Shown here: positions 20,201 through 46,535 of the stretch, piece by piece
Numbering within the stretch: position 1 is the first letter of the stretch
Layout: the number at the start of each line of letters is the position of its first letter
Source of the DNA: Candidatus Aminicenantes bacterium
GTDB taxonomy: Bacteria; Acidobacteriota; Aminicenantia; Aminicenantales; Aminicenantaceae
Reading direction: 5' to 3'
DNA: 64,000 nt
Assembly: GCA_021162615.1 (NCBI GenBank)
Contig: JAGGYH010000080.1
Location: 34,899 to 98,898 of the forward strand
Position numbers and translations under genes: made by a program
Notes under the pieces: generated by a model
Databases searched by the model: none
Seen by the model: the letters and a program-made list of their open reading frames with translations, nothing else
Told to the model about the DNA's origin: nothing

Positions 20201-20247
20201 CAAAATAATCATATATATCACATGAAAGATCTGTTATAACTAGCCTG

Positions 20248-20961
20248 GATGATGAACGAGTCGAGGTTGCTGTGTTATTGCGAAGAACAAAGTGATGAAG
20301 CAATCTCATTGTGAAACGAAGCGTCATGAGATCACCACGCCGCTGCGCTCCTCGTGATGATAAGGGAGCTCAGGCCACGCCACCTTTTAACCTTGCGAAA
20401 TTCAGGTATGGCCTGTGCTCCCTTCAGATTTTTAACGCCATTCTTCTTCGTTTTTCTCGGCTCCTGCGTAACTCCCCCCGTCCGTGGGTCAGACATACTC
20501 GGAGCCCGGCTTAGCCGGGTTCCCTCAAAAAGCCTCATCCGAAGGCTAAATCTTCAATGTCGCCACGTCCACACCTGGTTTTCGTAAGGTTAACGTTTAT
20601 CCTATAAGATAAATAGTATTACGCACAATCCCAACTTTCAGTCAGGCTGGGTGGTTCTGAAGTCATCCGGAGGCGAGCGGGCATGGTTCCTCGCAGAGGG
20701 GAGCGAGCCGAGGAATAAGCTGATTTTACTCGCTGGGGAAAATCAGCGGGCTGAAGAACCAGCTTGCCTGATGAAAGCCGGGAGCACAGACCGCGCCTGA
20801 ATTTCACATCGGCTTGCCTCAAAAGTAAAAAAAAGACGATTAAAATGAAATACCTAACCAGGAAAAGAGCTGCTATCGTCATTCTTAATATAATCTTGCA
20901 TATCGCTGGAACAAAATGAATAATAAATACATCGCCATTTTATTATGAATAGGTCAGGCTA
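20248..20961. repeat. Copy 1 (longest, about 714 bp) of a mosaic non-coding intergenic repeat family (modules A-B-C-D-E plus an internal inverted copy of C/D)
   Basis: Shares a 5' module GATGAT..AGTCGAGGTTGCTG, an internal CAACTCCCCCCGTCC(A/G)TGGGT module, about 110 nt of near-identical sequence (GAGCGAGCCGAGGAATAAGCTGATTTTACTCGCTGGGGAAAATCAGCGGGCTGAAGAACCAGCTTGCCTGATGAAAGCCGGGAGCACAG) and a 3' terminus CATCGCCATTTTATTATGAATAGGTCAGGCT with copies at 33716-33977 and 44894-45254. No credible ORF. Confidence 0.8.
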
Positions 20962-20970
20962 AAGACAGGT

Positions 20971-33300: not shown

Positions 33301-33713
33301 TTCTTCAGGGCTTTCTTACAGGGAACCGGCATCAACAGCGCAAGCAGATTGGTTATGACTATGGAGTTCTGTTCCTGGTTCCATTTCCGAAAAAACCTCA
33401 TTCTTGAAGAGACTGAATCCATAGAACAAGGAGTATCCTGATAAGGGCTGTCAGCCAAATGAGGGAAAATGTCAGACTCCTGATTCATCGACAACTGGGA
33501 AAGAAAAAAATCGCATTTTTCCTTAACGTTTTGTAGCGATGAGCTCACAGGGCAGAGAAACACAATGTTTTTCTCAGTCTCCCTCTTTATTGAAGACAAA
33601 AAATAAGGTTTTGCCTGATCAATGACCCCGGATATACTGAGGGCCTTTCCACTGCTTAATCCGCTTATCAGCTTCTTAAATTCTTCTGTTTTTGTTATAA
33701 AATCAATACTCAT
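30384..33713 (-). CDS. mfd: Transcription-repair coupling factor Mfd
   Basis: UvrB-homology N-region, RNAP-interaction domain, helicase motifs GDVGYGKTEVA / DEEQRFGV, TRG region. Start trimmed to MSIDFIT (ATG at 33713, RBS AGGTGA). The ORF-track extension to 33791 would read through a conserved repeat module. Confidence 0.85.
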   Translation of the reverse strand: MSIDFITKTEEFKKLISGLSSGKALSISGVIDQAKPYFLSSIKRETEKNIVFLCPVSSSLQNVKEKCDFFLSQLSMNQESDIFPHLADSPYQDTPCSMDSVSSRMRFFRKWNQEQNSIVITNLLALLMPVPCKKALKKLFLEIENGVTLDREDLIGVLENYGYERQDIINSHGEYAFRGGIVDVFSPLESYPFRIEFSGETVRSLRKFETSSQRSVERIDFLHIPSMREFPAAKDSEPCFVFHSKVNEQPFCRLKEYLGDCIYVIDDYDEVKKEWGQLQKEFKEQYEKLRKRNIFSLSPEEIFEFPFLDEVKDSAVRLNEIPSSSLKEHIAFSFQSVPTFKNKIPFFLTYLKKLQKESERSAIYISSKGVREKVSLILSENEIPFLEADHPFIEAKDGSVVLLIGKMGRGFSYPELKINYFSENDIFTEEKVLVSRPKTKAFLSHFQDLKTGDYVVHTDYGVGIFKGLVEMGVDGGKQEFIEINYRDDDKLFVPVQDLNLVQRYSRVGAAFPNLSKLGSPQWVKSRERVKKGIEKMAKELLHLYAKRMAQEGYAFSQKGMWQSDFEKTFEYEETGDQELAIKEVMDDMESSLPMDRLLCGDVGYGKTEVALRASFKAVMDGKQVAVLCPTTVLASQHLKTFQNRMLLFPVRVEGLTRLQSQSVQKNIVRDIKKGLVDIVIGTHRLISGDVEFKDLGLLVVDEEQRFGVKHKEKIMKMKSDIDVLTMTATPIPRTLNFSLSGLKDISLIETPPKDRLAIHTIVTLYSKKLISSAIKRELNRNGQVYFVHNRVEDIDTMAGMIKKWVPQAHVVTVHGKMRGAQLEKRMLDFIQGKYNVLISTTIIENGIDIPLVNTLIVNRAERFGLAQLYQLRGRVGRSSRQAFAYFLVSPSSKLTRKAKERLIAIQEFAELGSGFRLAAKDLEIRGAGNFLGEEQHGFMEAVGFEYYMFLLDQTVKKLRGEQTEPRKSRIDLKVNIRIPDAYIPQLSLRMDLYKRVSSIEELSELDKIKEEIRDRYGSFSQSVMNLFDYGKIKLLAQKAGIETLDRMRNKIVLKFFADSTADVSKLIGLVEKYSGSMTPQGIVTLMLGSENESNILHETICILKQLTLL

Positions 33714-33715
33714 AA

Positions 33716-33977
33716 GTGATTCACCTGTAATATTCACAAGTCGAGGTTGCTGCAGATGCGAGGCCCAGGGTGCGAAGCTGTGGTCCTTCACCGCGAGTGC
33801 CCTGTAACGAAGCAGATGCAGTGAGATCGGCTTGCCTAAAAGGTAAAAAAACGGCGATTAAAATGAAAGTGAAAAAAGCAATAACATTTCATTTATCATT
33901 TTTATAAAAAACATGTCTATCCTGTAAAGCAAAACAAAAAAATACTCATCGCCACTTTTTTATGAATAGGTCAGGTT
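33716..33977. repeat. Copy 2 (shortest, about 262 bp) of the mosaic intergenic repeat family (modules A, partial middle, D, E)
   Basis: GTGATTCACC..AGTCGAGGTTGCTG at the 5' end, ATCGGCTTGCCTAAAAGGTAAAAAAACGGCGATTAAAATGAAAG (module D) and CATCGCCACTTTTTTATGAATAGGTCAGGTT (module E), matching copies 1 and 3. Its 5' end lies 3 nt from the mfd start codon. Confidence 0.75.
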
Positions 33978-34092
33978 CATTATAAAAGATTTTTGTTTGG
34001 GAGGCTAGGGGTGTTGCCTTAGTGACAGGTAATAAGGGTTGAAAGAGTGTTGGGAAAAGTGTAATGTTTTGATTGAAAGAGCCAGGGACCTT

Positions 34093-44778: not shown

Positions 44779-44893
44779 TTTAAAATCAAATTAGTGCAAA
44801 AAAATTAAAGGGGAAATGTACCACTTTTTCCCTAAAAAAGCAAGAACTCAAAGCCCCAAAAACGTGACCCCAGAAAATCATGTCTCTAACTTC

Positions 44894-45254
44894 GATGATT
44901 CACCAGTCGAGGTTTCTGCGCAACTCCCCCCGTCCATGGGTGATCCTGGTCATTCATAAAATATGGTTGCGTTTCCAACACATTTACCATGATCGGCTCT
45001 CTTATCATTCTTAATTCATTAAGAACATACTTCTTACGTTGGTACATGTAATAATTTTACTTTATGCAACCATATTTTACCTTCATAGGCGAGCCGAGGA
45101 ATAAGCTGATTTTACTCGCTGGGAAAAATCAGCGGGCTGAAGAACCAGCTTGCCTGATGAAAGCCGGGAGCACAGGCCACACCTTAATTTCAGATCGGCT
45201 CGCCTGAAATGCAAAACAATGAACATCGCTGTTTTTTTATGAATTGTTCAGGCT
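44894..45254. repeat. Copy 3 (about 361 bp) of the mosaic intergenic repeat family (modules A-B-unique-C-D-E)
   Basis: GATGATTCACCAGTCGAGGTTTCTG, CAACTCCCCCCGTCCATGGGTG, then near-identical GGCGAGCCGAGGAATAAGCTGATTTTACTCGCTGGGAAAAATCAGCGGGCTGAAGAACCAGCTTGCCTGATGAAAGCCGGGAGCACAGGCC, then TTATGAATTGTTCAGGCT at the 3' end, which overlaps the folC stop. Confidence 0.8.
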
Positions 45255-46535
45255 AACCGCTTTTTTCATCTCTCCCACAATATATAAAGATCCTGCAATC
45301 AATATGGAACCGGTCCTCCCCGCGTAACAAAGAGCCGACCTAAATGCCTGAACCGGATCAGGCTCACACGTGATTTTATGCTTATGATGGAGGGTTTCGG
45401 ACAGTATCTCTTCCGGAGAGGCCGCTCTGTAAAATCGAAATCTGGTGACAATGACCCTGTCTGCTTTTGGAAACAGTATATCAGAGATCTCCTTTATTTT
45501 CTTCCCTTTCATCACTGCAAATATCAGCACGGAAACAGAACCTGTAAATTCGTCCAGGTACTCTCTCAAAGCCTTGGCGCCTTCGATATTATGGGCGCCA
45601 TCCATAATAATCAGAGGTTTTCTAGAAATGATTTCCAGCCTGCCCGGCCATTCTGCTGACTCGATCCCTTTAATGATCTTCTCTTTATCCAGCTTCCGGC
45701 ATCTTTGATGGATCTGTTCAGCGATCCCAATGGCTATGGCCGCATTTTTTCCCTGATGAACTCCGGGTAAACATGTTGAATACCTGTACGCTTTATCATT
45801 GAGAATATAATCAAAGATAAACCGGTCCCTTATTTTTTTCTTCATAAAGCTCGTGTTATTCCCGAACACATCAAAAAACGGAGCCTTGAGCTCTTCGGCT
45901 CTCTTTTGAATGACCCTCTTCGGGTCTTCATCAATGACACCTGAGACGACAGGAACTCCCGGCTTAATGATTCCTGCCTTTTCAAAAGCGATTTGAGAAA
46001 GACTTTCCCCCAAATACTCCTGGTGTTCTCCTGAAATGGTCGTGATCGCCGTTACCACAGGGTCCACAGCTGTAGTGGCATCAAATCTTCCCCCCATCCC
46101 GACCTCCAGCACTGCCATGTCAACACAACTCTCTTTAAAATAAAGCACCGCCAAGAGGGTCATGAGCTCAAAATAGGTAGGAGGCGTTTTAAGTACACCC
46201 CTGTCTATCAGATTTTGTATTTTTTGTTTTAAAAACTCCAGCAGCCGGCAAAATTCCGTTCTGTGAATAAGGTCATCTCCAATCCTTATCCGTTCCTCAA
46301 TGTCAACCAGATGGGGAGATGTGAAAAGCCCGCACTTTATTCCATGTGAGGTCAAAATCCTTGTCACCATCGCACACACAGAGCCCTTCCCGTTTGAACC
46401 GGCGACCTGGATTGTTTTGAAGTCTTTTTGAGGATCGCCCAATTCGCTCATTACAGCACGGACATTATCAAGACCGAATTTTATGCCCAAGGATTGTATA
46501 CGTGCTAGATAACTCAGACAATCCCGGTAATTCAT
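45237..46535 (-). CDS. folC: Bifunctional folylpolyglutamate synthase / dihydrofolate synthase
   Basis: Mur-ligase P-loop QVAGSNGKGS. Central and C-terminal Mur ligase domains. Confidence 0.85.
   Translation of the reverse strand: MNYRDCLSYLARIQSLGIKFGLDNVRAVMSELGDPQKDFKTIQVAGSNGKGSVCAMVTRILTSHGIKCGLFTSPHLVDIEERIRIGDDLIHRTEFCRLLEFLKQKIQNLIDRGVLKTPPTYFELMTLLAVLYFKESCVDMAVLEVGMGGRFDATTAVDPVVTAITTISGEHQEYLGESLSQIAFEKAGIIKPGVPVVSGVIDEDPKRVIQKRAEELKAPFFDVFGNNTSFMKKKIRDRFIFDYILNDKAYRYSTCLPGVHQGKNAAIAIGIAEQIHQRCRKLDKEKIIKGIESAEWPGRLEIISRKPLIIMDGAHNIEGAKALREYLDEFTGSVSVLIFAVMKGKKIKEISDILFPKADRVIVTRFRFYRAASPEEILSETLHHKHKITCEPDPVQAFRSALCYAGRTGSILIAGSLYIVGEMKKAVSLNNS

Follow-up and report, generated by a model that had tools for sequence, protein, structure and literature searches.

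Prokaryotic MITEs are defined as small elements with inverted repeats and flanking direct repeats that have no transposase and occur in multiple copies (PMC10969869). The Coxiella QMITE and the Correia elements of Neisseria are shorter than 500 bp, carry inverted and direct repeats, lack a transposase and are multicopy and intergenic. In these respects they resemble the repeat family described here, three copies of which lie in a 64-kb stretch of Aminicenantes DNA (the window). Transcripts of QMITE and Correia elements form stable stem-loops (PMC10969869), a further trait that they share with the Aminicenantes family. The latter differs from both in its G+C-rich interior, in compensatory changes between species, in a fold that belongs to one strand, in a 3:1 bias towards the sense orientation and in its interchangeable apical modules.

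IS5 makes 4-bp duplications of the form 5'-YTAR-3' (PMC5009759), a preference that IS5-group insertion sequences and the MITEs derived from them share with the Aminicenantes family. As in the Aminicenantes family, the terminal inverted repeats of the IS5 group are short and its targets are intergenic and A+T-rich. No IS5-family transposase, and no full-length element with the ends of the present family, was found in the loci examined. As far as we know, the ends of IS5-group elements begin with GG or GA, whereas those of the Aminicenantes family begin with CCTG.

Two other kinds of repeat invite comparison. Pneumococcal BOX elements and enterobacterial BIMEs are intergenic and hairpin-forming and combine a few modules in varying ways, and the same is true of the Aminicenantes family. 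To our knowledge, neither BOX elements nor BIMEs combine inverted repeats with target-site duplications of a regular kind, and unlike them the Aminicenantes mosaic arises by nesting and recombination inside a transposon frame. Foldback-type and nested MITEs insert into one another and contain long internal palindromes, as is seen here, and like them the present family has short derivatives, of 122 and 146 bp, that keep only the ends. In contrast to these MITEs, a nested unit of 409 nt keeps two almost invariant cores in 39 metagenome contigs, a constancy that simple decay does not predict.

We conclude that the three segments are very probably copies of a non-autonomous MITE that is abundant in uncultured Aminicenantes; their inverted repeats, duplications, copy number and lack of a transposase agree with the published definition (PMC10969869). 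A non-autonomous mobile element was one of two readings offered in an earlier note on this DNA, and the inverted repeats, 4-bp duplications, an empty site, the copy number and the absence of a transposase all bear it out. The same note called the family novel. This holds for the family, which is undescribed and includes nested and recombined members (in the literature we found nothing that links Aminicenantes with MITEs or structured RNAs), and not for the class of element, which is well known and ordinary in bacteria. What goes beyond an ordinary MITE is the depth of compensatory change, the one-strand fold with its sense bias and the near invariance of the core that we call core B.

Structure of the three window copies

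All three copies lie on the plus strand. Copy 2 (33724..33975) is a canonical 252-bp MITE with both structured domains, matching the family profile over its full length (E = 9e-68). It is flanked by an exact target-site duplication, TTCA (33720..33723 and 33976..33979), which is not of the preferred YTAR type. Copy 3 (44890..45252) is a decayed chimera of 363 bp with a degenerate 5' inverted repeat, CTTCGATGATTCA, and lies between exact copies of CTAA (44886..44889 and 45253..45256). Copy 1 (20244..20958) is a composite MITE of 715 bp, in which the family ends are intact and the interior has been swapped for nested modules. Its left flank, the duplicated target CTAG (20240..20243), agrees with its right flank, CTAA (20959..20962), at three of four positions. 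Copies 2 and 3 fall below the 500 bp that typically bounds MITEs in size, and the composite copy 1 exceeds it.

The segments delimited in the earlier note stand, with their edges moved by a few bases. The modules reported as common to them were all recovered with a repeat finder and with pattern searches, in the order described and on the plus strand. The pattern searches, which allowed mismatches, gave overall counts in the window of 3-4, against 0-0.75 expected from shuffles. Module AGTCGAGGTTGCTG is present in the three copies and in one unrelated near-match (0.28 expected), ATCGGCTYGCCTNAAA in the three copies (0.22 expected), TTATGAATAGGTCAGG likewise in three copies, and AACTCCCCCCGTCCRTGGGT in copies 1 and 3 (0 expected). 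The repeat finder also aligned a 134-nt stretch of copy 1 (20703-20836) with one of copy 3 (45089-45222) at 91% identity. The elements had been described as without coding capacity; in agreement, their longest internal open reading frames do not exceed 87 aa, and none of the small frames has a Pfam match.

Ends and distribution of the family

One genome per prokaryotic species was searched with a degenerate 21-nt pattern for the 5' module, ATKMACNAGTCGAGGTTKCTG, which matched more than 108 genome stretches. Three of the matches listed, in Planctomycetota, Saccharibacteria and Prevotellaceae, fall in coding DNA and were set aside as chance. The others all belong to Aminicenantes (OP8) assemblies or to bins with these elements, at least 29 assemblies at the species level, one of which contributes 22 contigs. 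Viral contigs gave chance matches only. A search with the family profile gave 135 matches in 0.82 Mb of loci examined.

The 21-nt pattern starts 8 nt inside the element and in most copies the 3' terminus follows ∼245 nt after the start of the pattern, which gives a canonical unit of ∼252 bp; in about 50 copies its length is 244-262 bp. An alignment of 50 copies defines the ends as CCTGGATTATTCA on the 5' side and TGAATAGGTCAGG or TGAATAATTCAGG on the 3' side. These form imperfect terminal inverted repeats of 13 nt, complementary at 10-12 of the 13 positions and conserved throughout the alignment.

Many family matches are located at contig ends, and five independent metagenome contigs from the same species as the window (L003-L007) stop within or just after copy 1. 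This indicates that the dispersed repeat breaks short-read assemblies, and so explains breaks in Aminicenantes metagenome assemblies. The family also offers a ready marker for strain-level variation in this uncultured phylum. Aminicenantes elements are carried by assemblies labelled "uncultured Eubacteriales bacterium" (L095 and other CAZ*/CAY* loci). L095 shows synteny with the window, at 79-85% identity, and the "Eubacteriales" labels are probably wrong.

Target-site duplication and evidence for mobility

The 4-nt flanks are identical on the two sides in 27 of 59 copies, whereas shuffling the pairs 5000 times gave 5.1 on average and never more than 13; in 41 of the 59 the flanks agree at three or more positions. 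The dominant tetranucleotides CTAA, TTAA, CTAG and TTAG, which together correspond to YTAR, account for 35 of the 59 left flanks. Matching duplications outside this consensus are also seen, namely ATAA, TGGA, TTTA and the TTCA of copy 2.

The flanks of each copy were joined and compared with all loci examined, and one filled/empty pair was recovered. The filled locus, L058, reads ...CTATACTTAA[251 bp]TTAATTTAATTATGAG, that is TTAA-[251 bp]-TTAA, and the orthologous empty locus, L025, reads ...CTATACTTAATTCAATTATGAG with a single TTAA. The flanks are otherwise 85% identical, and the difference between the two loci is exactly the element plus one TTAA. Presence also varies at the site of copy 1, in that the Gfo-patatin spacer of L095 contains a 55-nt inverted family fragment in its place, between genes that are 79-85% identical.

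The L058/L025 insertion site (L058:1640-1960, L025:2790-2880) lies in the loop of a long, near-perfect palindrome (GGGGGACACTATACTTAA...TTAAGTATAGTGTCCCCC) that may be another hairpin repeat or a terminator. The derivatives of 122 bp (L077:546-667) and 146 bp (L115:1525-1670) keep both ends and are flanked by an exact 4-bp duplication, so that transposition seems to need little beyond the ends.

Mosaic architecture of copies 1 and 3

Neither copy 1 nor copy 3 keeps the apex of the first internal hairpin (domain 1); both are composites in which other repeat modules have taken its place. The earlier note regarded their middles as unrelated; the middle of copy 3 is instead an inverted match to the family, and that of copy 1 consists of modules that are found again in further genomes and in metagenomes.

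The family profile matches copy 1 only at 20244-20273 (profile positions 1-30) and 20808-20958 (positions 103-252). At the 5' end (20244..20272, plus strand) lie CCTGGATGATGAA, an inverted repeat that varies from CCTGGATTATTCA, and GAGTCGA..., which belongs to the 5' strand of the first internal stem. An alternative apical hairpin, GTGATGAAGCAATCTCAT...ATGAGATCACCAC, occupies approximately 20273..20363 on the plus strand and is present also in L045, L077 and L092. In the 3' part (20808..20958, plus strand), ATCGGCTTGCC forms the other strand of that stem; this part also has the A+T-rich second domain, which GACGAT/ATCGCC closes, and TGAATAGGTCAGG as its 3' inverted repeat.

Nested within copy 1 is the 409-nt unit (20397..20805, plus strand), bounded by 26-nt inverted arms (20397-20422 and 20780-20805) and without a target-site duplication of its own. 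Units of 408-414 nt were found in 10 distinct contexts, usually inside family members or beside pieces of them and in either orientation, and the same layout is seen in 39 JGI metagenome contigs. The first of its two cores, core A (20423..20566, plus strand), is a conserved structured module containing AACTCCCCCCGTCCGTGGGT; 18 copies predict 51 pairs, of which 12 show compensatory changes. Core B (20633..20779, plus strand) is 147 nt long and almost invariant, with pairing between GACUUUCA and UGAAAGUC closing a Y-shaped fold. It is carried by 39 metagenome contigs (L118-L156) in which the flanks vary, and it has no Rfam match. The near-identical sequence of about 110 nt that had been noticed earlier in copies 1 and 3 stems from this core.

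A hammerhead reading of CUGAUGA in core B was rejected, as this stretch pairs with GACUUUCA in the closing stem. The A+T-rich spacer that precedes core B was likewise rejected as a promoter, its best hexamer scores (7.2) not exceeding those of shuffles (6.95). The core B copies of L147 and L149 lack an internal 26-nt hairpin, which therefore seems dispensable. An AGCGAG/CUCGCU pseudoknot is possible in core B; neither of its sides varies.

In copy 3 a degenerate 5' end and a short 3' end enclose a 23-nt piece of another module, an inverted and truncated domain 2 of the family itself, and the 3' half of core B. The inverted partial family copy (44945..45097, minus strand) comprises domain 2 and the first stem's 3' strand; the profile matches it on the minus strand from 45097 to 44950 (positions 104-246), and homologous segments are found in L066, L075 and L111. 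The truncated core B (45089..45191, plus strand) consists of the 3' half of the core and the right arm of the 409-nt unit. The junctions in copy 3 fall at short shared sequences such as GCGAGCCGA. Mosaics of this kind were probably generated by nested insertion, inversion and recombination at such shared sequences, the partners being other family members and the second, hairpin-bounded module of 409 nt.

Fold and orientation

The consensus fold, derived from 50 distinct copies, has 51 pairs, 17 of which have changed on both sides, and comprises three parts. The two inverted repeats pair with each other and close the whole fold. Within it, domain 1 is an irregular hairpin of ∼95 nt with conserved internal loops, closed by pairing of CGAGUCGA with UCGGCUCG, and domain 2 is A+T-rich and closed by a covarying stem, UGGCGAU with AUCGCCA. 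Pairing is kept in 98.0% of the cells of this structure and double changes occur in 147, values that none of 500 shuffles reaches, the copies from related genomes being not fully independent samples. When the partners are slid by 1-3 columns as a control, pairing falls to 27-40%.

The fold is specific to the plus strand, as follows from the excess of G·U cells (290, at 30 pairs) over A·C cells (12, at 8 pairs); read as the minus strand, the consensus fold drops to 87% pairing. Folding of copy 2 gives z = -4.84 for the plus strand and z = -1.96 for the minus strand. Copy 1 folds alike on both strands (z = -3.2 each).

Of the 32 copies that lie between co-directional genes, 24 are oriented in sense and 8 in antisense (p = 0.007). 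The direction of the copies follows neither the locus-wide GC skew (38 against 49) nor the overall coding strand, and a replication-strand cause was dropped for lack of a link with the skew. The fold itself is real. The sense bias hints at selection on the transcript, in which the fold would then act. Our tentative account, which we hold to be a little short of probable, is that the fold is kept because most copies are co-transcribed in sense with their neighbours, the compact structure making the insertion tolerable or stabilising the transcript.

The earlier note's other reading, a family of structured regulatory RNAs, finds little agreement with the surroundings of the copies. The neighbouring genes are diverse, including those for a Gfo oxidoreductase, a patatin, Mfd, a Mur ligase, ATP synthase subunit b and a TonB-dependent receptor as well as peptidases and ABC transporters. 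Consensus scans for a sigma-70 promoter or an intrinsic terminator in or next to the copies gave nothing above shuffled expectation, and copy 3 is a decayed chimera. The constant site upstream of one gene class that marks a riboswitch or leader was not seen, 8 of the 32 copies being antisense. No Rfam 15 model reached its gathering threshold in the window, L065 or L111, and E-value searches with copies 1 and 2 gave only noise. For the canonical unit an effect at the RNA level is nevertheless possible, given the strand-specific structural covariation and the orientation bias.

Alternative explanations

The compensatory changes, strand-specific fold and orientation bias exceed the needs of a purely selfish MITE, and the element may additionally be something else. 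It is conceivable, if somewhat doubtful, that the selected unit is a functional structured RNA, either a cis-acting mRNA element or a small RNA co-transcribed with its neighbours (one that stabilises the message, marks a processing site or insulates the genes of an operon from each other, for example), and that the transposon ends merely spread it. The strong covariation, the 290 G·U against 12 A·C cells, the far better folding of the plus strand of copy 2 (z = -4.84 against -1.96), the 24 sense against 8 antisense copies and the conserved folds of cores A and B all accord with such a unit. Against it are the want of a promoter or terminator consensus in or beside the copies, the lack of relation among the flanking genes, the absence of an Rfam match and the persistence of decayed, chimeric copies such as copy 3; kinship among the copies can also inflate the covariation counts, and MITE transcripts generally form stable hairpins (PMC10969869). 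A related idea, that the conserved folds of domain 1 and of cores A and B are a functional RNA carried as transposon cargo, is compatible with the covariation, the one-strand G·U pairs, the 3:1 sense bias and the near invariance of core B, and we consider it distinctly unlikely. In variants of this idea, the fold could tuck the insert away and bring an upstream stop codon next to a downstream ribosome-binding site, or the RNA could be a partner of the element's transposase. If the strand-specific fold is functional, the family would offer a clear example, in bacteria, of selection on the transcript shaping a MITE, and the almost invariant 147-nt core B would be a candidate for a new class of RNA.

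Pairing of the inverted repeats closes the whole fold and copy 1 folds equally on both strands, as might be expected if the fold worked on single-stranded DNA during replication or transposition, joining the ends and aiding the transposase. DNA hairpins, moreover, tolerate G·T pairs. Cut-and-paste DDE enzymes, however, act on double-stranded ends, and the orientation of the copies tracks the immediately adjacent genes rather than GC skew or the overall coding strand, so that a role of this kind appears unlikely. The modular mosaic with its nested hairpins, the common strand of the three window copies and the absence of a duplication around the 409-nt unit would also fit palindromic elements of the REP/BIME-like or IS200/IS605 type, moved on single-stranded DNA by an HUH (Y1) transposase. 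This is very improbable and is already contradicted for the outer element, which has inverted repeats, variable 4-bp duplications and one precise empty site; we know of no HUH-mobilised element that yields this combination, and no RAYT or TnpA gene recurs near the copies. A local duplication artefact or chance similarity, which the small number of copies in the window might suggest, can be dismissed almost with certainty. Further copies, the absence of which, together with that of a transcription signal, would have pointed to such an artefact according to the earlier note, were found beyond the window in many Aminicenantes assemblies; hundreds of copies in about 29 species and many metagenomes, with module counts far above shuffled expectation, already refute it.

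Transposase and proposed mechanism

With mobility as a MITE as the preferred reading, the 4-bp YTAR duplication, which is like that made by IS5, leads us to infer an IS5-type DDE transposase acting in trans; it is the duplication that suggests mobilisation by an enzyme of this type. Set against the MITE reading are the short, imperfect inverted repeats and the recovery of a single filled/empty pair. A DDE transposase encoded elsewhere would bind both ends, at their 13-nt terminal inverted repeats and over ∼30 conserved nt, cut the element out and paste it into YTAR sites in A+T-rich intergenic DNA, where staggered cleavage and repair would duplicate 4 bp.

Clustering of the open reading frames around the copies revealed no recurrent family, and comparison with Pfam, which included frames beside 5' ends that lack a 3' end, identified ordinary genes and no transposase. 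An autonomous partner would be bounded by CCTGGATTATTCA and TGAATARKTCAGG. Elements delimited by inverted repeats and exact duplications are just 122-356 bp long, and inverted-repeat pairs 500-3500 bp apart enclose ordinary genes and no transposase. No autonomous insertion sequence with the same ends was found in about 1.1 Mb of loci, insertion sequences being elements that assemble poorly in metagenome bins. One candidate partner of 1.9 kb, in L143, was rejected, as it encodes a sulfatase. At this locus (L143:6554-8482, also L118:6760-8689) the sulfatase gene lies between inverted solo family ends, CCTGAAATATTCATAA and CCTGAACTATTCATAA, 1.9 kb apart and flanked by ATAA and TTAA, and it may be a gene bracketed by element remnants.

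Possible effects on neighbouring genes

For annotation, the family carries the warning that G+C-rich intergenic islands of this kind represent copies of a transposon and should not be taken for regulatory RNAs that belong to the genes beside them. Two of the window copies may reach into the signals or coding sequence of a neighbour. The start codon of mfd (33713..33711, minus strand) is preceded 7 nt upstream by AGGTGA, a motif that resembles a ribosome-binding site (window 33711-33727). Half of this motif is the terminal three bases of the MITE (33724-33726) and the other half belongs to the duplicated target (33721-33723); the reconstructed empty site lacks it. At copy 3, the stop codon and the last four codons (LNNS*) of a Mur-ligase-like open reading frame (45237..46535, minus strand) lie inside the 3' inverted repeat, at 45237-45252, and the insertion seems to have given this frame a new C-terminal tail in place of the original one.
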